Positions 2,131-63,465 of a stretch of DNA of 64,000 nt are shown one piece after another. The position numbers and the translations under genes were made by a program. Source of the stretch: Nitrospiria bacterium (GTDB taxonomy: Bacteria; Nitrospirota; UBA9217); contig CAKKRC010000045.1 in assembly GCA_919902495.1 (NCBI GenBank), positions 3,162-67,161 on the forward strand. Direction: 5' to 3'. A model generated the notes under the pieces. It worked only from the letters and a program-made list of their open reading frames with translations, searched no databases and was not told the origin of the DNA. Position 1 is the stretch's first letter. Every line of letters begins with the position of its first letter.

Positions 2131-3480
2131 ATGCAGAATAAAAGGAAGTCCATCAAGCTATTGATCATTATCGTGATGGTTGCCATATTTGCGGCGCTGC
2201 CGGTCCAGGTGAATGCCATCGAGCCGCTAGGCAAGCGCATTGTGCTGAAGAACGGGATGGTACTTCTCCTTTCCGAAAAGCATGAGATCCCCATGGTGAC
2301 CGTGAGCATGGCCATCAAGGCAGGGAGTGTCGTGGAGCCCGGGGGCAAACCCGGCCTCGCGTCGCTCACGGCGTCGCTCCTCACCCAGGGGACGGCGAAG
2401 CGCACGGCGAGCCAGATCAGCAGGGAAATAGATTTCATCGGCGGTTCGCTCTCTGTCTCCGGAGGCGATGACTATGCTTCCGCGGGCCTTCGCGTTCTCA
2501 AGAAGGACATCAAGACCGGATTCGACCTGCTGTCCGACGTGCTGATGCATCCGGTCTTCGACCAGAAGGAGATCGACCGCAAGGTCAAGGAGACCCTGGC
2601 CGCGATCCAGCAGCAAAAGGAAGAGCCGGCGGTCATTGCCGGCGAGGCGTTCACCAAGGCGGTGTTCGGCAGTCATCCCTACGGTAAAACGAGTGATGAT
2701 GTTGCGGCATTCCTTCCGAAGCTTGTCCGGCAGGACGTGCTGGATTTCTACGCCCGGCGGTACGGCCCCAATGACGTAATCATCGCGGTGGTGGGGGACG
2801 TGACGGAGAAGGAGATCGTGTCCCTCCTGAAGGAACAGTTCAAGGGATGGAAGAACGCCGAGCGAACGGAAATGGAACGAACGAAACCGCCGGTGATCGG
2901 CTCGGTCATCGTCAAGAAGCTCGACAAGAACATCACCCAGGCGAACATCGCGATGGGCCATGTGGGCATCAGCCGGGAGAACCCGGATTACTATGCCGTG
3001 ATGATCATGAACTATATCCTGGGCGGGGGAGGGTTCTCGTCACGGCTCATGGACAACATCCGCGACAACCGCGGTCTTGCCTACGACGTGCACAGCTCGT
3101 TCTCGGCGCAGAAGGACCCCGGTCCCTTCCGGGCATGGATGCAGACCAAGAGCGAGTCGGCCAACGAGTCCATCGACGAGATCTTCAAGGAACTGAAGCG
3201 CATCCGCACCGAACCGGTATCGGAGAAGGAACTTGCCGATGCCAAGGCATATCTTACCGGGAGCTTCCCCCTGCGCATGGACACGTATGCGAAGATCGCA
3301 GGCATGTTGACTGCTATCGAAATATACAACCTCGGGATGGATTATCCCCAGAAGTATCCGGCGCTGATCAACGCGGTGACCCGCGAGGACATCCTCAGGG
3401 TCGCGAAGAAATATATCGATCCGGACCGCATGGTGATCGTGGTGCTGGGGAACCAGGAAAAGATAAAGCTGAAGTACTGA
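2131..3480 (+). CDS. M16 family peptidase, second (non-catalytic-type) subunit, secreted
   Basis: 449 aa with an N-terminal signal peptide. Homologous to the upstream M16 gene but lacks HxxEH. Paired M16 genes in tandem are typical. Confidence 0.8.
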   Translation: MQNKRKSIKLLIIIVMVAIFAALPVQVNAIEPLGKRIVLKNGMVLLLSEKHEIPMVTVSMAIKAGSVVEPGGKPGLASLTASLLTQGTAKRTASQISREIDFIGGSLSVSGGDDYASAGLRVLKKDIKTGFDLLSDVLMHPVFDQKEIDRKVKETLAAIQQQKEEPAVIAGEAFTKAVFGSHPYGKTSDDVAAFLPKLVRQDVLDFYARRYGPNDVIIAVVGDVTEKEIVSLLKEQFKGWKNAERTEMERTKPPVIGSVIVKKLDKNITQANIAMGHVGISRENPDYYAVMIMNYILGGGGFSSRLMDNIRDNRGLAYDVHSSFSAQKDPGPFRAWMQTKSESANESIDEIFKELKRIRTEPVSEKELADAKAYLTGSFPLRMDTYAKIAGMLTAIEIYNLGMDYPQKYPALINAVTREDILRVAKKYIDPDRMVIVVLGNQEKIKLKY

Positions 3481-3587
3481 CAGAAGACAGAGCACAGACG
3501 ACAGACAACAGACTGGAGCCTGAGCAATGGGGCTGCTGTTTGTCTGCCGTCTGAACGTCTGATGTCTGTTGTCTGAATTTTGATCCT
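3481..3587. repeat. Palindromic intergenic hairpin element (cagacaacagac family)
   Basis: Left arm cagacgacagacaacagac pairs with right arm gtctgatgtctgttgtctg. A homologous copy lies at 59773-59865. Confidence 0.7.
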
Positions 3588-6120: not shown

Positions 6121-6292
6121 ACCACAGAGACACAGAGAAGATCAAGGAAGGGCAGTTTTTATACACAAATACTGACGCCGGAAAGGACCTTTCTCCGGAT
6201 TGGCTTTCTGATCTTATGAATGAGACCTGGTTGTACTATTTGTCGTCGTTCTCTGTGCCTCTGTGTCTCTGTGGTAGATTTTTCACTTTCTC
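6121..6292. repeat. Intergenic inverted-repeat hairpin element (cacagagacacagag family)
   Basis: caccacagagacacagagaag near 6121 pairs with ctctgtgcctctgtgtctctgtgg near 6260. Confidence 0.7.
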
Positions 6293-8568: not shown

Positions 8569-8580
8569 AAATTTTGCACC

Positions 8581-8686
8581 GCAGAGATCACAGAGGACGC
8601 AGAGGGTACATTTATTATTGGGGCTCCTTTCTCCGCGGTCTCCGCGTGCTCTGCGGTGAAATGATGTATTATTTTGGAGGTTTTTT
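8581..8686. repeat. Intergenic hairpin element (caccgcagag...ctctgcggtg family)
   Basis: caccgcagagatcacagaggacgcagagg pairs with ctccgcggtctccgcgtgctctgcggtgaa. Confidence 0.7.
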
Positions 8687-9645: not shown

Positions 9646-10878
9646 ATGTTTACCATCTCACCCAGCTTAACGGACCTCAAGGTCAAGGAACGGAACATCT
9701 ATAAGATGCTCTACTCCATGAACAGTCCGCAGGTCGCCACGCCGGAGTTGAGCGTCGAAGAGGCGCGGTGCTACGTGTTGTTCTTCAGCGAAGGACCGAA
9801 CCTTTCCGCATACATCGGGCTCTACCTTCCCAGGATCGACCGGAAGATCTTCTATGCGTACACCTCCAACCCCTTTCCTTTTGAGGCGGCGCCTGATGTG
9901 GAATTCGAAGCAACAGGCTTTGCTGAAGATATGGGTTTCTTGCTCGACGAGATCAGCGTGAGCGGTATGCCGGCCGATGACCGGAACAGGTGGATCGAGG
10001 AACAGTATATCTTCGGCTACAAGAAACCTGACCTCTCAGATGACAACGTCACCATCACGAAAGCGGAAAACGTCAAATCCGCCCTGACCGAAAAAGAAGA
10101 GGCCCGTGAGGCACAGGCAAAAGCGGAGCAGGCGGTAAAGGCCGCCCCCGCAAAGCCTGTTGAACCGTCACCGGCGCCGATCGTGGAACCGGTGCCTCAC
10201 CTGGAAATGCCGGTGCTGCATCCGGAACCGGCTCAGCCTCAGCCTCCGGTCCAGCCACCACCTCAGGCACAGCCGCCGCAGCAGCAGCCCTATCCACTGT
10301 ACCAGCAGCCGGTTCCCCAGCAGGGCCAGCCCATGCAGCCGCCGTATCCGCCTCAGCAGCCTATGCAGCCGCAATATCCGCCGCAGCAGGTACCCCAGCA
10401 GGGCCAGCAGTACCCCCCGCAGCCATACGGCCAGCCGCCGCAACCGTATGGCCAGCCGCAACAGCCGTATGGACAACCGCCCTATGGGCAGCCACAGCAG
10501 TATCAACAACCGTATCCCCAGCAGGGCCAGCCGATGACACCTCAATATCCGATGGCTCCGCCCCAACCGCCGCCGGTCTTTGAGCAGCCCGCCGCACAAC
10601 CGAAAAAAGCGCAGCCGCCTCAGCAGGCCAAGGCGCCGCAGAAGAAAAAGGTGCAGAAGGCCCCGGAACCGGTGCCTGAAGAGTTGTTCGAGGAAACGGT
10701 TCCCGTCGAATTGGACGCGGCGCCTGTGCAGCAGCGGTCTGCCAATGTGTTCGAAGAGGCGCTGAGGGAAGGTGTGGTGAAACCGCCGAAGCCGAAGACC
10801 TCCAAGGCGGTCCGCCCCGCATCGGGCGTCGTACCACGGGACAAGGAAGCGCTCGCTCGACTGCTCGCGTCGTTCTGA
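9646..10878 (+). CDS. Hypothetical protein with globular N-domain and long P/Q/Y-rich low-complexity C-terminal region
   Basis: 410 aa. Residues ~190-330 are dominated by QPYGQP / PQQ / QQGQP repeats, ending in a K-rich tail. Confidence 0.6.
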   Translation: MFTISPSLTDLKVKERNIYKMLYSMNSPQVATPELSVEEARCYVLFFSEGPNLSAYIGLYLPRIDRKIFYAYTSNPFPFEAAPDVEFEATGFAEDMGFLLDEISVSGMPADDRNRWIEEQYIFGYKKPDLSDDNVTITKAENVKSALTEKEEAREAQAKAEQAVKAAPAKPVEPSPAPIVEPVPHLEMPVLHPEPAQPQPPVQPPPQAQPPQQQPYPLYQQPVPQQGQPMQPPYPPQQPMQPQYPPQQVPQQGQQYPPQPYGQPPQPYGQPQQPYGQPPYGQPQQYQQPYPQQGQPMTPQYPMAPPQPPPVFEQPAAQPKKAQPPQQAKAPQKKKVQKAPEPVPEELFEETVPVELDAAPVQQRSANVFEEALREGVVKPPKPKTSKAVRPASGVVPRDKEALARLLASF

Positions 10879-14524: not shown

Positions 14525-14628
14525 AGGAGCAAGTAGACAGTAGACAGGAAACAGTAGACAGGAGTGCGTAAAGGAGGCGTTCGTATCTTCATCATTGCCC
14601 TGTATACTATGTACCGTCTACTGTATTC

Positions 14629-28799: not shown

Positions 28800-28933
28800 A
28801 AGGTTCTCCTTGAACTTCGTAAGGGGTCAGGGGTAAGGGGTTAGGGGTTAGGAGCAATGAGTAGGGACGCTTTTCGCAACAGACGCAGACGCTATACGCC
28901 TTACCCTTTACTCCTTACCCCTCACCGCAATTA
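28800..28933. repeat. Intergenic hairpin element (ggggtcaggggtaagggg / cccctcacc family)
   Basis: G-rich arm gtaaggggtcaggggtaaggggttagggg pairs with C-rich arm ccttaccctttactccttacccctcacc. Confidence 0.7.
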
Positions 28934-30537: not shown

Positions 30538-30741
30538 GAATTAACATCCACCACGGAGACACGGAGTCACGGAGAAAGCCAAAAGCTTTTGTAACCACAG
30601 ATGAACACAGATGGACACGGATAGAACATCAGAAAATACTTAATTGTCGTTGATTTTATCTGTGTTTATCTGTGTTAAAAGTATTTATTAAGCAGTTCTC
30701 CGTGCCTCCGTGCCTCCGTGTCTCCGTGGTGAAAAGGTCCG
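30538..30741. repeat. Intergenic nested hairpin element between pstA and pstC
   Basis: ccacggagacacggagtcacggag pairs with ctccgtgcctccgtgcctccgtgtctccgtgg. An inner pair cacagatgaacacagatggacacggat / atctgtgtttatctgtg is nested. Confidence 0.75.
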
Positions 30742-31695: not shown

Positions 31696-31959
31696 GCAAG
31701 AAACATCTGCCACAGAGACACAGAGGCACAGAGAATAGAACTGACAAGGCATTTCACCGCAGAGGACGCAGAGGAAAAGCAAGCGAGGAAGGCAAGTGTC
31801 TTTGAATTGGTTTTGAACCGGCCCCAAAAAAATGACTTGGGTTTAAAAACCCAAAGTGCCGCTTTTGACATTATCGTCCTCTGCGTCCTCTGCGTCCTCT
31901 GCGGTGAAAAAGACTTTGAACTTCTCCGTGTCTCTGTGCCTCCGTGGCAAAAGATTTTA
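31696..31959. repeat. Intergenic nested hairpin element between pstC and pstS
   Basis: Outer arms ccacagagacacagaggcacagag / ctccgtgtctctgtgcctccgtgg. Inner arms caccgcagaggacgcagagg / cctctgcgtcctctgcgtcctctgcggtg. Confidence 0.75.
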
Positions 31960-50953: not shown

Positions 50954-51180
50954 GTGCAATTCCCTGGAGTCGCCTTGCAGGTTCCTCCCCAAAGATAAGC
51001 CCCCTCTCCCTTTTTCCCTCTCCCACTGGGGGAGAGGGGCAGGGGTGAGGGGAGTTGTTTTGGGTTAGGTGGGGGTGATGAGCACGAACGCCGAATACTT
51101 CACCCTCCCCTTAATCCCCTCCCATCGAAGGGAGGGGAGAGTTAAAAGCCACGATACTTCGTAGTTTGCTACGGGGAGGA
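50954..51180. repeat. Intergenic hairpin element (cccctctccc...ggggagaggggcagggg family)
   Basis: C-rich and G-rich complementary arms. Related copies at 60650-60750 and 62080-62170. Confidence 0.65.
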
Positions 51181-56358: not shown

Positions 56359-56546
56359 TCCGATTGCGGATTGCGGATTGCGGAATAAAAACAACGGCAA
56401 GAATCGAACCTTTTCACCGCGAGGGCGCGAGGAGCGCGAGGAAATCATAAACAAGAATTAAAGAAAATGAATTCTGCCGTCCTCGCGACCTTTGCGCCCT
56501 CGCGGTGAAAGGTTTTATATCCGGCCTTTGACGTTAGGAGAAAATT
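56359..56546. repeat. Intergenic elements between nifH and nifD: gcggattgcggaat tandem motif plus hairpin (caccgcgagggcgcgagg / cgccctcgcggtgaaa)
   Basis: attgcggattgcggattgcggaat at 56361-56386, also found after dut at 697-726. Inverted arms at 56405-56425 and 56490-56515. Confidence 0.7.
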
Positions 56547-58266: not shown

Positions 58267-59772
58267 ATGAAGATCAGAGACCATAGCGAGCTGTTCAAGC
58301 AGCAGGACTACCAGGAGCAGTTCGAGCGCAAGAAGGAATTCGAGAATCCCTGGCCCGCCGAGAAGGTGAAGGAGATCTCGGACTGGACCAGGACCGAGGA
58401 GTATAAAGAGCTCAATTTCAAACGGGAGAACATCAAGATCAATCCCGCGAAGGCGTGCCAGCCTCTGGGCGCGGTGTTCTGCGCCTCGGGGTTCGAAGGC
58501 ACCATGCCCTTTGTTCAGGGAGCCCAGGGCTGCGTGGCATACTTCCGAAGCCACCTGAGCCGGCACTTCAAGGAACCCTTTGCCGCGATCTCCACGTCCA
58601 TGACCGAGGACGCGGCGGTGTTCGGCGGCCTGAACAACATGCTCGAAGGCCTGGAGAACACCCATGCCCTGTACAAGCCCAAAATGATCGCGGTCTCGAC
58701 GACCTGCATGGCAGAGGTGATCGGCGACGACCTGAACTCCTACATCAAGACGGCGAAGGAGAAGGGCGTCGTTCCCCAGGACCTGCTCATCCCGTTCGCG
58801 AACACCCCGAGCTTTGTGGGTTCCCATATCGTGGGTTATGACAACATGATGAAGGGGATCCTGAAAGCGCTTTGGGCAGGAAAGAAAGGCGAACCGAACG
58901 GGAAGATCAACATCATTCCGGGCTTCGATACCTACACCGGCAACTACCACGAGATCAAGCGGCTGATGAGCTTGATGGGCATCGAGGCGACAGTGCTTGC
59001 TGACGTGAGCGATACCTTTGATTCTCCAAATACAGGAGAGTACAAGCTCTATCCCGGCGGCACGCCGCTCCACGACGCGCAGGACGCGGTGAACGCGATC
59101 GGGACGGTGGCGCTCCAAAAATATTCTACCGTAAAGACCATGGATCACATCCAAAAGGAGTCGGGACAGAGGACGCTCACGCTTTCGCCGATCGGCATCA
59201 AGAACACCGACGCGTTCTTTGCCGAGCTCTCCAAGCTCACCGGCAAGCCTGTCCCGGCGGCGATCGAAGCAGAACGTGGAAGGGTCGTGGACGCCATGGT
59301 CGATTCGCACCCTTATGTTCACGGCAAGCGGTTCGCCCTGGTCGGCGACCCGGACATCCTGCTCGGCATGATGAGCCTCATCATGGAGATGGGTGGAGAG
59401 CCGGTCCACATCGTCTGTACCAACGGCGACAAGCACTTCGAGGCGGAGGCGAACGAACTGCTCGCGTCGAGCCCCTTCGGCGCGAATGGAAAGGTCTATA
59501 TCGGCAAGGACATGTGGCATTTGCGGTCGCTCCTGTTCACCGATCCCGTCGACATCCTGATCGGCAACTCCTACGCAAAGTTCCTGACCCAGGACACGGG
59601 AACGCCGCTGGTGCGCATCGGGTTCCCGCTCTTCGACCGGCATCATCTCCACCGCCAGCCTATCATCGGTTACCAGGGCGCATTGAACCTCGTGACCATG
59701 CTGGTGAATACAACACTTGACGAGCTGGACAGGAAGACCGAGGGTTCGGCCAGCTTTGATGTAATTAGATAA
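58267..59772 (+). CDS. nifK: Nitrogenase molybdenum-iron protein beta chain
   Basis: 501 aa. PLGAVFCASGFEGTMPFVQGAQGCVAY P-cluster Cys ligands. RBS GGAGGGG before ATG at 58267. Confidence 0.9.
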   Translation: MKIRDHSELFKQQDYQEQFERKKEFENPWPAEKVKEISDWTRTEEYKELNFKRENIKINPAKACQPLGAVFCASGFEGTMPFVQGAQGCVAYFRSHLSRHFKEPFAAISTSMTEDAAVFGGLNNMLEGLENTHALYKPKMIAVSTTCMAEVIGDDLNSYIKTAKEKGVVPQDLLIPFANTPSFVGSHIVGYDNMMKGILKALWAGKKGEPNGKINIIPGFDTYTGNYHEIKRLMSLMGIEATVLADVSDTFDSPNTGEYKLYPGGTPLHDAQDAVNAIGTVALQKYSTVKTMDHIQKESGQRTLTLSPIGIKNTDAFFAELSKLTGKPVPAAIEAERGRVVDAMVDSHPYVHGKRFALVGDPDILLGMMSLIMEMGGEPVHIVCTNGDKHFEAEANELLASSPFGANGKVYIGKDMWHLRSLLFTDPVDILIGNSYAKFLTQDTGTPLVRIGFPLFDRHHLHRQPIIGYQGALNLVTMLVNTTLDELDRKTEGSASFDVIR

Positions 59773-59865
59773 CAGACGGCAGAACACAGATGACAGACAA
59801 CAGACTAGAGCTTTTGAATCTGTCTGTTATCTGGCAGTCTGACATCTGATGTCTGGGAGTTACCC
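59773..59865. repeat. Palindromic intergenic hairpin (cagacaacagac family), homolog of 3481-3587
   Basis: acagacaacagactagagc...gtctgttatctg. Shares the acagacaacagact[g/a]gagc core with the element after the second M16 gene. Confidence 0.7.
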
Positions 59866-60606
59866 ATGCACGACATCGCACTAAGCGGCATATACTTCTT
59901 TTCCATCGCCCTTCTGTATTCCACGGTCGGTCACGCGGGGGCATCGGGCTACCTGGCGACGATGGCGCTTCTTTCGTTCACGCCGGAGGTCATGAAACCG
60001 ACCGCATTGGCGCTCAATATCATCGTTGCCCTGGTCACGACCGTCCGGTTCGCGATGGCCGGTCATTTTTTCTGGCGGTTGTTCTGGCCCTTTGCTTGTG
60101 CGGCGGCACCAATGGCGTACATCGGCGGTGGCATGTCGATGGATGCCGCGCTTTACAAAATACTCGTAGGCATCGCGTTGGTGTTCGCCGCGCTCCATCT
60201 CATGCTCAGGATCAATGCAGCAACAGATGATACTGAAGGAGCACCTCATCCGGGGATAGCTGCATCGCTGGCAGTGGGGGGAGGCATCGGGTTCCTTTCC
60301 GGTCTCACCGGAGTCGGCGGCGGCATTTTTCTCAGCCCGGTCCTGATCTCTCTTCATTGGGCGGGATTCCGGAGAACGGCCGCAGTGGCTGCGGCATTCA
60401 TTCTTTTGAACTCGATCACCGGTTTGGCGGGATATCTTCAAACGGGCGGCGTATTTCCGGATCACATCGCCTTCTGGTCCGTTGCGGTCCTTTCCGGCGG
60501 ATTCATCGGATCTACGTTAGGAGCAACGAGATTTAACAGCCCCGCGCTGAGGGTATTGCTCGGGGTCATGCTGGTCATGGCAGGGGTGAAGATGGTCGTC
60601 ATCTGA
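59866..60606 (+). CDS. TauE/SafE (DUF81) family membrane permease embedded in the nif cluster
   Basis: 246 aa, 7-8 TM. Internal duplication with glycine-rich motifs (GGGIGFLSGLTGVGGGIFL). Confidence 0.6.
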   Translation: MHDIALSGIYFFSIALLYSTVGHAGASGYLATMALLSFTPEVMKPTALALNIIVALVTTVRFAMAGHFFWRLFWPFACAAAPMAYIGGGMSMDAALYKILVGIALVFAALHLMLRINAATDDTEGAPHPGIAASLAVGGGIGFLSGLTGVGGGIFLSPVLISLHWAGFRRTAAVAAAFILLNSITGLAGYLQTGGVFPDHIAFWSVAVLSGGFIGSTLGATRFNSPALRVLLGVMLVMAGVKMVVI

Positions 60607-60759
60607 GGACAGGGTTCAGCGTTCATAGTGAAGACCGAGGATCGGCGAGTTTTGATGTAATACGGCTGCGATAACCCCTCACCCCAACCCTCTCCCCGCA
60701 GGGGCGAGGGAGTATGAAGTTCATTCTCTCCCCAGGGGGAGAGGACCAAGGTGAGGGGG

Positions 60760-63465
60760 ATGGGCATGACTATGACAACGACGCTCGACAAATTAACGGC
60801 AGACGGCTGTTCCACGGACGACAAACACAAGGTCTGCCGCTCGCGGGGCGGCGAGTCCTGCGCCTTCGACGGGGCCATGATCGTGCTCCAGCCCATCGCG
60901 GACACGGCCCATATCGTCCACGGCCCGATCGCCTGCTGCGGGAACTCCTGGGAAGGGCGGGGGACCCTGTCGGCCCAGGGGGGGCTGCACCGGATGGGCT
61001 TCACCACGGACCTGGGCGAGATCGATATCGTCTACGGCGCAGGCAAGAAGCTCCATGATGCCATTGTAAGGACGCACCAAGCGGTCCAGCCGAAGGCCAT
61101 CTTCGTCCATGCGACCTGCGTGAGCGGCCTCATCGGCGAGGACATCGAGGCGGTGTGCAGAGAGGCCGAAGCGGAGCTGGGGATCAGGGTCATCGCGGTG
61201 AGCGCGCCGGGATTCACAGGACCCAAGAACCTGGGAAACCGCATCGCCGGGGAGGTGCTGCTCGATCAGGTCATCGGTACCGGCGAGCCCTCTGTCACGA
61301 CGCACTGCGATATCAACCTCATCGGCGAATACAATATCGCCGGCGACCTGTGGCTCGTGGAGCCGCTTCTGGAGCGTGCGGGCATCCGCGTCCTGTCCCG
61401 GATCACGGGGAACGCGACCTTCGACGAGATCACCCATGCCCACCGGGCGAAACTGAACGTCGTGGTCTGCGGCCGCGCTCTGATCAATGTCGCCGCGGGC
61501 ATGGAGCGGAAGTACGGGATCCCCTTCGTTGAGGCATCGTTCTACGGAAGGACCGAGACATCAAAGGCGCTGCGGTCCATTGCGGAGCAGCTCCAGGAGT
61601 CAAAGGACAAGAGCCGGAGGTCGGGAGACCCCCACATACGGGGAGCCGTCGAAGCGCTCATCAAGGGCGAAGAAAAAAAGCTTCAGGAGGCGCTCAAGCC
61701 GTACAAGCACCTGCGGGGGAAAAAGGCGGTCCTCTATACGGGAGGCGTGAAGAGCTGGTCCTTCATCTCCGCCCTGCACGACCTCGGGATCGAGGTCGTG
61801 GCGGTAGGAACGAAAAAGAGCACGGTAGAGGATGAGGAAAAGATGAAGAAGATCCTCGGTCCCGGAGCACCGCTCATCGAGGACGTGACGCCGAAGAACC
61901 TTGTGAAGCTCCTTAAGGAAAGGCATGCCGACATTCTCGTGGCCGGAGGCAGGAACCAGTACCTGGCGATCAAGGAGGGCTACCCCTTCGTCGACGTGAA
62001 CCAGGAACGCCACAGTGCTTATGCCGGGTATCAGGGGCTGGTGAATTTGGCGGAAGATATAAGCAATAGCATAAGATTCTACCGGGGGAGTTCAGAGTGC
62101 GGAGTGCGGAGTGCGGATTTCCCCCTCACCCCAGCCCTCTCCCCGGACGGGAGAGGGAGAAAACAATCTGACATCGCGTATCCGAAATCAGCAATCCTCA
62201 TCGATCCGTTGAAGCATTCTCCCGCCATCGGCGCCGCCATTGCGTTCCAGGGCGTCCACCGGGCATTGCCGGTCATCCACGGGGCACAGGGCTGCGGCTT
62301 TCTCGGCAAGGTGCTGCTCACCAAGCACTTCCGGGAGCCGATGGCCCTCGCAACCACCAAGCTCTTCGTGGAGAACGTGGTGCTGGGTAGCGAGGAGATC
62401 CTGGAACGGGCCATAGAGGGTTTTATTGAAAAAAACACCCCCGATGTCATCGGGGTCCTGACGTCGGGACTGTGCGAGGTTAAGGGGGATGACGTTAAAG
62501 CAGTAGTCAGGAGACAGGAGACCGGAGTCAGGAGTAACGGCGCAAAGACGAAGATCATCCATGTTGCGACGCCCGATTATGACGGTGGGCTGGAACAAGG
62601 TTATGCGAGGGCGGTGGAGGCGATCCTTGAAAGTGCGGAGTTACCGATCGGATCGGGACAGGTCTCCATGCGGCGTGCGGATGAAAAACAAGTTAACATC
62701 CTGGCGGGATCGCACCTGACACCTGCCGACGTTCAGGAACTGCGGGAGATCGTTGAGTCATTCGGTCTGCAGCCGATAATCCTGCCCGACCTGTCCGCTC
62801 TCGATGGAAGCAGAAGGAACTTTTCCCCGCTCGCAGACGGGGGCACGACGGTTGAAGATATGAAGGCGATGGCGGGATCCGTCTTGACCCTTGCGGTTGG
62901 GAGAAGCATGGAGCCGGCGGCGAAGATGTTGAAAGAGGCCAGCGGCATGGAGTACCGTGTCATCGAGGGTCTTTGCGGGTTGCTGGACACCGACCGGTTG
63001 ATGGCGATACTTTCGGAAGTCAGCGGCAGAACAATGCACAAGCGGTATGACCGGCAGAGGAGAAGCCTGATCGACGGGATGCGGGACGCGCATTTCTTCT
63101 ATGGCAGGAAAAATGTCTGCATCGCCCTGGAACCTGACCTGGCACTGCAGGCGTCGCGTTGGCTGGATGAGATGGGCGCCCGCGTGGAACTCGCTGTGAT
63201 CCCGACGCTGTCGGCATCGGCCGACCATATCCTTGCGCGGAGGGTGGAACTCGGCGACCTTTTCTCGATCCGCGGCCGATTTGATCTCCTTATCTCGAAT
63301 TCCCATGGGACGGAAACGGCACAGCGTCTCAAGGCGCCGCTGTACCAGACCGGCTTCCCGGTCTACAAGGTCCTGGGCGCCGCCTCGCGGGTAACGATCG
63401 GATACCGGGGAACGCTGGCGATGATCAACGAGGTGGGGAATCTGATGATGCATCATCCTGCATGA
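60760..63465 (+). CDS. nifEN: Nitrogenase FeMo-cofactor scaffold NifE-NifN fusion protein
   Basis: N-terminal ~440 aa are NifE-like. From ~62190 the sequence is NifN-like (IDPLKHSPAIGAAIAFQGVHRALPVIHGAQGCGF). One continuous reading frame with no internal stop. A ~30-aa linker (SSECGVRSADFPLTPALSPDGRGRKQSD) is encoded by a repeat element. Confidence 0.8.
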   Translation: MGMTMTTTLDKLTADGCSTDDKHKVCRSRGGESCAFDGAMIVLQPIADTAHIVHGPIACCGNSWEGRGTLSAQGGLHRMGFTTDLGEIDIVYGAGKKLHDAIVRTHQAVQPKAIFVHATCVSGLIGEDIEAVCREAEAELGIRVIAVSAPGFTGPKNLGNRIAGEVLLDQVIGTGEPSVTTHCDINLIGEYNIAGDLWLVEPLLERAGIRVLSRITGNATFDEITHAHRAKLNVVVCGRALINVAAGMERKYGIPFVEASFYGRTETSKALRSIAEQLQESKDKSRRSGDPHIRGAVEALIKGEEKKLQEALKPYKHLRGKKAVLYTGGVKSWSFISALHDLGIEVVAVGTKKSTVEDEEKMKKILGPGAPLIEDVTPKNLVKLLKERHADILVAGGRNQYLAIKEGYPFVDVNQERHSAYAGYQGLVNLAEDISNSIRFYRGSSECGVRSADFPLTPALSPDGRGRKQSDIAYPKSAILIDPLKHSPAIGAAIAFQGVHRALPVIHGAQGCGFLGKVLLTKHFREPMALATTKLFVENVVLGSEEILERAIEGFIEKNTPDVIGVLTSGLCEVKGDDVKAVVRRQETGVRSNGAKTKIIHVATPDYDGGLEQGYARAVEAILESAELPIGSGQVSMRRADEKQVNILAGSHLTPADVQELREIVESFGLQPIILPDLSALDGSRRNFSPLADGGTTVEDMKAMAGSVLTLAVGRSMEPAAKMLKEASGMEYRVIEGLCGLLDTDRLMAILSEVSGRTMHKRYDRQRRSLIDGMRDAHFFYGRKNVCIALEPDLALQASRWLDEMGARVELAVIPTLSASADHILARRVELGDLFSIRGRFDLLISNSHGTETAQRLKAPLYQTGFPVYKVLGAASRVTIGYRGTLAMINEVGNLMMHHPA
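62080..62170. repeat. Hairpin repeat element embedded in-frame between the NifE and NifN moieties
   Basis: ggagtgcggagtgcggagtgcggatttccccctcaccccagccctctccccggacgggagagggag, same family as the intergenic element at 60650-60750. Confidence 0.7.

Follow-up and report, generated by a model that had tools for sequence, protein, structure and literature searches.

How did two genes for nitrogenase assembly come to share one reading frame? The DNA analyzed here, a 64,000-nt stretch (the window) of contig CAKKRC010000045.1 from the metagenome-assembled genome (MAG) of a Nitrospiria bacterium (GCA_919902495.1), carries nifE and nifN as a single reading frame, nifEN, and the segment that joins the two parts contains a hairpin repeat that also occurs between genes. 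The initial annotation proposed that the repeat made the fusion, a hairpin insertion having replaced the stop codon of nifE, the intergenic spacer and the start codon of nifN. Our comparison with related loci points the opposite way; we consider it likely that the hairpin is a tolerated in-frame insertion, similar to those of the Rickettsia palindromic element (RPE), into the permissive tether of a NifEN that had long been fused.

A single reading frame for NifE and NifN

The open reading frame (ORF) is free of stop codons from a GTG at 60751 to position 63465, with ATG codons at 60760, 60766 and 60772, and the translation of its linker region, SIRFYRGSSECGVRSADFPLTPALSPDGRGRKQSDIAYPKSAILIDPLKHS, is identical to the one quoted in the initial annotation. 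Each half was recognized by its own NCBIfam model: residues 14-441 (904-residue numbering) by TIGR01283 (nifE, 580.2 bits, above the cutoff of 505.1) and residues 477-900 by TIGR01285 (nifN, 445.8 bits, above the cutoff of 326.8). Pfam detected two PF00148 stretches in the product. These data bear out the observation that NifE and NifN lie in one frame, and they fix the boundaries that had been left to alignment, with NifE homology extending to residue 441 and NifN homology beginning at residue 477. The bifunctional NifEN model NF011047 covers residues 13-902 (model positions 5-907 of 917) with a score of 1000.8 bits, under the curated NCBIfam equivalog cutoff of 1229; the architecture is the same and the clade has diverged. 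Among 38 sequences, cysteines C37, C62/C63, C123, C240 and, in the NifN part, C515 are invariant and line up with the corresponding cysteines of Azotobacter vinelandii NifE (3PDI). We take these residues to be cluster ligands.

The initial annotation had also noted that nifN lacks a start codon at the expected position. No usable start is present, although two start-like codons do lie in frame within the linker, a GTG at 62104 (inside a heptamer array) and a TTG at 62209 (the Leu of PLKHS); neither is preceded by a stop, and both are read through in all relatives. We also looked downstream of the array for a start codon or Shine-Dalgarno (SD) sequence that could serve a separate nifN, and none was suitable. 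This bears on the possibility that a frameshift or a collapsed repeat within 62050-62200 has joined two genes through an error of assembly, binning or sequencing. Assemblers and polymerases tend to make errors in short tandem heptamers and in GC-rich hairpins, and the source is a MAG. However, six contigs, among them one of 585 kb that is labelled cov_35 and comes from Hainich groundwater well H41, encode an identical 899-aa protein, and for this reason an artefact is unlikely. MAGs from other sites and studies share the in-frame architecture, a related locus with 84% amino acid identity (L001) has the same insert with the same junctions, and a separate nifN would be left without a usable start or SD sequence. 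We therefore regard an artefact as scarcely credible.

Fused NifEN among relatives

A scan of one genome per species gave 80 related loci, mostly in MAGs labelled Nitrospirota, Nitrospiraceae or Thermodesulfovibrionales. In all 80, NifE and NifN are encoded by one stop-free ORF of 860-967 codons. The best 120 database homologs (66-100% identity) are likewise all fused, with lengths of 822-929 aa, and a search of these two sets for an unfused close relative found none. A protein of 440 aa with 61% identity that contains NifN only (P0128) was considered as an unfused relative and rejected, being a contig-edge fragment without a start Met. When 1.8 billion cluster representatives were searched without filters, fused NifENs with ordinary, non-repeat linkers were found at 65, 50, 47, 46, 33 and 32% identity. 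Unfused homologs appeared only at about 50% identity (the top NifE) and about 40% identity (NifN, top 42%) or lower. The solved structure 9i0g is also that of a fused NifEN, of 919 aa, with a linker unrelated to that of the window. Some related loci gave matches of about 4 kb; the nifEN ORFs there are 860-967 codons long, and the extra length probably reflects the joining by tblastn of a high-scoring segment pair from an upstream paralog. In four loci (L017, L035, L052 and L073) a fused nifEN of Nitrospirota type (61-67% identity) lies on contigs that were binned in MAGs labelled Betaproteobacteria, Actinomycetes, Candidatus Aquicultor and Chloroflexota; either the contigs were mis-binned or the nif cluster was transferred horizontally.

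The nifEN of the window is an ordinary member of a clade of Nitrospirota/Thermodesulfovibrionia-type MAGs with a long-fused nifE-nifN. Judged by these sequence comparisons, the fusion appears to be ancestral in the clade, and its creation by the repeat is not supported.

Repeat content of the linker

The linker comprises about 35 residues, SSECGVRSADFPLTPALSPDGRGRKQSDIAYPK, and its DNA has three parts: a GGAGTGC heptamer array, a GC-rich hairpin and a decayed inverse heptamer array, which encodes the end of the linker together with the first NifN residues (AYPKSAILI). The hairpin, an insert covering about 62121-62159, is an exact match, on the reverse strand, to the BoxC/PIT/TMECO consensus 5'-CCCTCNCCC N3-6 GGGNGAGGG N3 GGGNGAGGG-3'. 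E. coli is the species in which this potential intrastrand-triplex motif was originally described (Holder et al. 2015, PMC4666352). The K-12 strain has 23 TMECO copies, always intergenic, and the motifs mark regions of raised sequence variability without associated mobility genes (PMC4666352). The initial annotation recognized the linker as a member of an intergenic repeat family, and this assignment holds for both components: the hairpin matches BoxC/TMECO exactly, and the heptamer arrays resemble those between genes.

The 35-nt consensus has two exact matches in the window (62123-62157 and 60676-60710) and the 23-nt hairpin core also has two, against 0.00 expected from shuffling in each case; the hairpin recurs in the window beyond chance. 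Its identity to the intergenic copy at 60675-60712 is 89.5% over 38 nt. Altogether the family has three copies in the window, two of them intergenic and one, in the linker, translated inside nifEN. The 93-nt double element upstream of nifEN matches 5352 of 5426 complete E. coli genomes at a median of 13 places per genome; it aligns lengthwise with the E. coli wcaA-wzc intergenic copy and is 75% identical over 88 nt to E. coli copies. Across 1.03 Mb of related loci plus the window we counted 47 hairpin cores, 11 deep within nifEN ORFs, 29 in no long ORF and seven in other ORFs of at least 150 codons, which were counted by length alone and not checked as genes. Copies outside nifEN are mostly intergenic and typically palindromic doubles, often abutting gene ends, and those inside nifEN occur at the linker or at other loops, in different frames and both orientations. 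At gathering thresholds, Rfam assigned no family anywhere in the window, the hairpin and arrays included. L001 and L005, whose NifEN proteins are 84% and 71% identical to that of the window, have the upstream double element in the same place, with a nucleotide identity of 96-98%. In the window the 3' arm of this element (GGTGAGGGGG; region 60672-60772) provides the only SD-like purine run before the ATG codons at 60760, 60766 and 60772.

The heptamer arrays form a second repeat class, whose members, tandem arrays of 7-9-nt units set as inverted pairs, fill the intergenic regions of this genome. Such pairs, sometimes nested, lie at 3479-3577, 6123-6273, 8580-8657, 14532-14612, 28819-28926, 30551-30728, 31709-31946, 56418-56510 and 59767-59860; their units vary from site to site, and long hairpins with tandem-repeat stems are expected to form.

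The hairpin unit is free of stops in five of its six frames and the frame is kept, so the ribosome reads through it; the encoded peptide, FPLTPALSPDGRGR, is a spacer rich in Pro, Gly, Arg and Ser. The only structure predicted for the element by RNAfold is a 9-bp hairpin. In an AlphaFold2 model (99-sequence alignment, mean predicted local distance difference test score (pLDDT) 73) the entire linker, residues 442-479, is coil with pLDDT<50, and the tether between NifE and NifN is thus predicted to be disordered and structurally unconstrained. The features of the locus are collected in Table 1.

Table 1. Positions of nifEN, its parts and the associated repeats in the window
Feature	Coordinates	Strand	Remarks
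Third, intergenic copy of the hairpin family	51000..51055	-	Related copy
Palindromic double BoxC/TMECO, intergenic	60672..60760	+	Abuts the nifEN start; closest relative of the linker copy in the window
nifEN fused ORF	60766..63465	+	Start as in annotated homolog P0001 (ATG 60766); stop 63463-63465
NifE-homologous part, aa 14-441 (904-aa numbering)	60790..62073	+	TIGR01283; alignments to 3PDI_A and 9i0g
NifE surface loop QESKDKSRRSGDPH	61594..61635	+	Degenerate CAGGAGT-like heptamers; 10-aa insertion relative to A. vinelandii NifE
5' heptamer tandem array, GGAGTGC x ~4.4 (TRF)	62087..62117	+	Translated SSECGVRSA
BoxC/PIT/TMECO motif CCCTCACCC-CAG-CCCTCTCCC-CGGAC-GGGAGAGGG	62123..62157	+	Translated within FPLTPALSPDGRGR
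Degenerate inverse heptamer array GCGTATC CGAAATC AGCAATC CTCATC	62176..62202	+	Clear inverse arrays in L001, L003, L009, L010
NifN-homologous part, aa 477-900	62179..63450	+	TIGR01285; alignment to 3PDI_B
CAGGAGT-type heptamer array inside NifN	62501..62535	+	Translated RRQETGVRSNG
Second repeat cassette, NifN loop, ELPIGSGQVSMRRADE	62633..62690	+	Flanked by GTGCGGA heptamers

Relatives with and without the hairpin

Several fused relatives (L010/P0069, P0088, P0065 and P0081) have the same flanking arrays without the hairpin, which argues that the repeat entered a linker that already existed. Direct comparison of the L001 and L010 DNA gives an insert of about 39 nt (13 codons), and the protein P0004 differs from P0088 by exactly PLTPALSPNGRGR, 13 residues. 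The window, L001, L006 and L007 share the junctions GCGGATnn / CCCTCACCCC...GGGAGAGGnAG / AAAA, the hairpin of the window sitting between GGATTT and AAAA; the element is missing from L010 and L002. The element itself is a hairpin, or palindrome, and the arrays on its two sides are inverted, in degenerate form in the window. As to whether fused relatives share this linker, which the initial annotation had raised, the outcome is divided: the hairpin is common to L001, L006 and L007, and L010, L002, P0088, P0065 and P0081 lack it.

Turnover of linkers and loops in the clade

Linker length in the clade varies from 27 to 72 aa, and no sequence is conserved among the linkers. Many consist of a 5' array, an optional core cassette and a 3' inverse array, and the two arrays co-vary in their units: ECGVRSAE occurs with RTPHSALR, SEQGVRSSE with NSELR, and IADCGLRIAD with QSAIANPKSAIL. 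The cores differ by lineage, with a single TMECO in the window, L001, L006 and L007, a double one in L018, a reversed one in L078 and other elements elsewhere. In a NifEN tree from which the variable columns had been left out, the types of linker have a patchy distribution and one cassette may sit on distant backbones. Linkers of more distant relatives (L023, L032, L045, L046, L050 and L058) read, for example, KHRSYMSNKTYT, 'ENRSYKSYKTY' or 'DKSYMNDKTS'; their DNA may be palindromic or tandem, which suggests that the linker is a repeat sink there too, for different elements.

The same kinds of elements occupy loops within the NifE and NifN parts. In the window these are the NifE surface loop and the two NifN sites of Table 1; residues 281-287 of the NifE loop and residues 628-638 of the NifN loop that holds the second cassette are coil with pLDDT<50 in the model. 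This NifN-loop cassette is 98% identical in nucleotide sequence to that of L005 (protein identity 71%), and its core recurs in the linker of L019. Similarly, the linker core of L004 recurs in a NifN loop of L010, and TMECOs are found in other NifE or NifN loops of L016, L021 (two copies) and L048. Two small cassettes, 'PIGSGQVSM' and 'PPIKAFEGRLH', flanked by GCGGA-type heptamers, lie in a NifN loop or in the linker depending on the lineage (window 62633-62690; L005 7954-8008; L019 7322-7343; L004 7349-7393; L010 7856-7895). They are nearly identical in nucleotide sequence on distant backbones, as if they moved between heptamer-array sites.

These observations bear directly on the proposal that nifE and nifN were once separate and that a hairpin insertion joined them. 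The linker truly is repeat DNA of the intergenic type, and the element is stop-free in five of six frames. Moreover, arrays, hairpins and other cassettes give the linkers of much of the Nitrospirota clade a repeat-derived look, so that an ancient read-through of a stop-free element in the ancestor of the clade is conceivable. However, all 80 loci and all 120 proteins are fused, no relative among them is unfused, and fused NifENs with ordinary linkers exist at 32-65% identity and in 9i0g. The fused relatives with empty sites indicate that the hairpin came later as a short in-frame insert, which contradicts the proposal for the copy in the window. Because the same elements lie in NifE and NifN loops that were never intergenic, their presence in the linker needs no intergenic origin either. 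We conclude that the repeat is improbable as the source of the fusion.

Passenger or functional element

We asked how structured the linker RNA is by comparing its minimum free energy (MFE) with that of same-length segments of the same ORF in 67 sequences (66 loci and the window). The median z was +0.8, and z was 0.01 for the window; values below -2 were obtained for five of the 67 linkers, including L003 (-3.5), L018 (-2.8) and L030 (-3.5). A dinucleotide-shuffle test of the linker RNA gave a z of -0.37. The median MFE z and the shuffle result together rule out the linker as a selected RNA structure in general. Heptamer slippage as a switch between fused and split forms is also unlikely, since there is no suitable in-frame NifN start or SD sequence downstream.

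These results have to be set against the idea that the hairpin, the triplex motif or the inverted arrays are a selected cis-element, be it a translational pause between the NifE and NifN domains, a site of mRNA stability or processing, or a regulatory or instability switch in the DNA, including phase variation by heptamer slippage. Some cassettes are far more conserved in nucleotide sequence than the surrounding gene, the unit types of the 5' and 3' arrays change together from lineage to lineage, the folds of a few linkers are very stable (L003, L018 and L030), and TMECO oligonucleotides form triplexes in vitro (PMC4666352). On the other hand, the linker has in most cases less structure than the remainder of the ORF, the presence, orientation, frame and family of the cassettes vary, and many relatives have none. 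Slippage would leave split NifN with no in-frame start downstream. In addition, PIT elements showed neither promoter or terminator activity nor an effect on replication in vivo, according to earlier work as cited in PMC4666352, and in vivo dimethyl sulfate footprinting gave no support for stable TMECO triplexes (PMC4666352). We judge a selected cis-element to be a poor bet. The overall pattern is the one expected of recent palindromic insertions decaying in a tether free of constraint, not of a maintained structural element, and the reading of the hairpin in different frames and orientations by different lineages argues that no specific peptide is selected.

Based on these results we propose the following course for the tolerated insertion. 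The DNA of the tether would have been colonized by the small non-coding repeats of the genome, giving the 5' array and the 3' inverse array that has since decayed, and a single BoxC/PIT/TMECO hairpin unit would then have inserted between the arrays as roughly 13 codons. Such insertions may be near-neutral passengers, selfish DNA in a coding gene in the manner of RPEs. Cassettes would probably turn over when heptamer arrays recombine or when the template is switched from one array to another, or through the instability reported for triplex motifs; a dedicated function in NifEN is probably not what drives this turnover.

Several points weigh against this proposal. No convincing target site duplication (TSD) or terminal inverted repeat (TIR) was found at the GGATTT and AAAA junctions, which were judged by eye, and the literature ties no transposase to BoxC. 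Hairpin-bearing linkers in relatives of 69-84% identity share both position and frame, so that an early gain followed by repeated losses may account for the insert as well as a recent gain, and the neighbor-joining tree cannot separate these two histories. The AlphaFold2 model, with its mean pLDDT of 73, is moderately confident overall. Finally, the near-identity of cassettes on distant backbones could mean constraint at the nucleotide level, that is, function: the upstream double element reaches 96-98% and the NifN-loop cassette 98% (L005) nucleotide identity despite a protein identity of 71%. Pure neutrality does not explain this identity or the co-variation of the arrays, and both leave some room for a functional or an actively mobile reading.

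A further speculation, which we hold only tentatively, is that the heptamer arrays serve as landing pads, or as arms of homology, for cassettes that are still active (among them TMECO, 'PIGSGQVSM' and 'PPIKAFEGRLH'). By hopping or by gene conversion these would pass from intergenic sites to no fewer than four permissive NifEN loops and back. If so, translated 'non-coding' repeats would constantly rewrite parts of an essential nitrogenase-assembly protein, namely its linker and its loops, an RPE-like phenomenon for a repeat family so far reported only as intergenic.

Other features of the region

Upstream of nifEN lie two PF00148 genes, the second also with DUF3364, which we read here as nifD and nifK. 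They are followed by a gene for a TauE/SafE-family membrane protein (246 aa, PF01925) at 59866-60606, between nifK and nifEN. According to the gene table of L081, nifEN is followed on its 3' side by a NifX-type gene (PF02579), two genes for P-II proteins and genes for a ferredoxin, an acetyltransferase and a radical-SAM protein. Elsewhere in the window, the ORF 9646-10878 contains, at 10228-10487, several tandem repeats that overlap one another and have 15-30-nt periods. They are unrelated to the nif repeats, and their units are rich in CAG and CCG codons, which suggests a low-complexity segment rich in Pro and Gln.

Comparison with known systems

Palindromic repeats lying in frame inside genes are a known phenomenon, to which the translated BoxC/TMECO hairpin with the heptamer arrays adds a new case. 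A fusion made by a repeat would have exemplified the creation of a multidomain protein by selfish DNA, and the evidence points the opposite way. What the locus offers instead is a repeat described as strictly intergenic in E. coli that lies in frame in an essential nif gene and recurs in this clade over several loops, frames and orientations. The clade thereby supplies natural data on the arbitrary sequence tolerated by the NifE-NifN tether and the NifEN loops, which are relevant to engineered Nif polyproteins, and its MAGs are a place to study how orphan repeats move. The literature that we found on NifEN fusion linkers deals with engineered fusions and polyproteins and contains nothing on repeat-derived linkers.

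The protein itself resembles the known bifunctional NifEN (NF011047/PRK14477; 9i0g, 919 aa) in being one polypeptide with NifE at the N-terminus and NifN at the C-terminus and in being encoded within a nif cluster, where nifK precedes nifEN and nifX follows it. It aligns with 9i0g over residues 32-900 (E=8e-219) and with NF011047 over residues 13-902. Its linker, however, is unrelated in sequence to that of 9i0g, is encoded by repeat DNA and is hypervariable within the clade (27-72 aa), and its score lies below the NF011047 cutoff (1000.8 against 1229 bits).

The linker hairpin matches the BoxC/PIT/TMECO motif (PMC4666352) in its exact consensus, CCCTCNCCC-N3-CCCTCNCCC-N3-6-GGGNGAGGG, in being multi-copy and in its similarity to E. 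coli copies; the family in the window also includes palindromic doubles, as upstream of nifEN, and is tied to local sequence variability. It differs from E. coli BoxC in being translated in frame within an essential nif gene, here and in several relatives, in its Nitrospirota host and in its setting between heptamer arrays. Paired tandem arrays of hepta- or octanucleotides are known from Geobacter metallireducens, where four to five tandem units of 7-8 nt occur, in some cases as paired, strand-switching intergenic arrays (Aklujkar et al. 2009, PMC2700814). One heptamer family there is found 'within genes … as well as between genes', and the arrays have been proposed as binding sites for regulators (PMC2700814). 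The arrays of the window are similarly paired but have other units, belong to another phylum and flank cassettes in a coding linker.

The closest parallel to the insertion is provided by RPE and by other MITE/ERIC/BOX elements known to lie in frame inside genes (Ogata et al. 2000, 2002, as summarized in PMC10969869). As described in that summary, RPEs are, like the hairpin, small, palindromic and mostly non-coding, and they insert in frame and without stops into permissive or surface regions of unrelated or essential proteins. The hairpin belongs to another family, is about 39 nt rather than about 150 nt long, encodes no conserved peptide (being read in several frames and both orientations), shows no obvious TIR or TSD and, in contrast to RPEs, forms cassettes that appear to be exchanged between heptamer-array sites.

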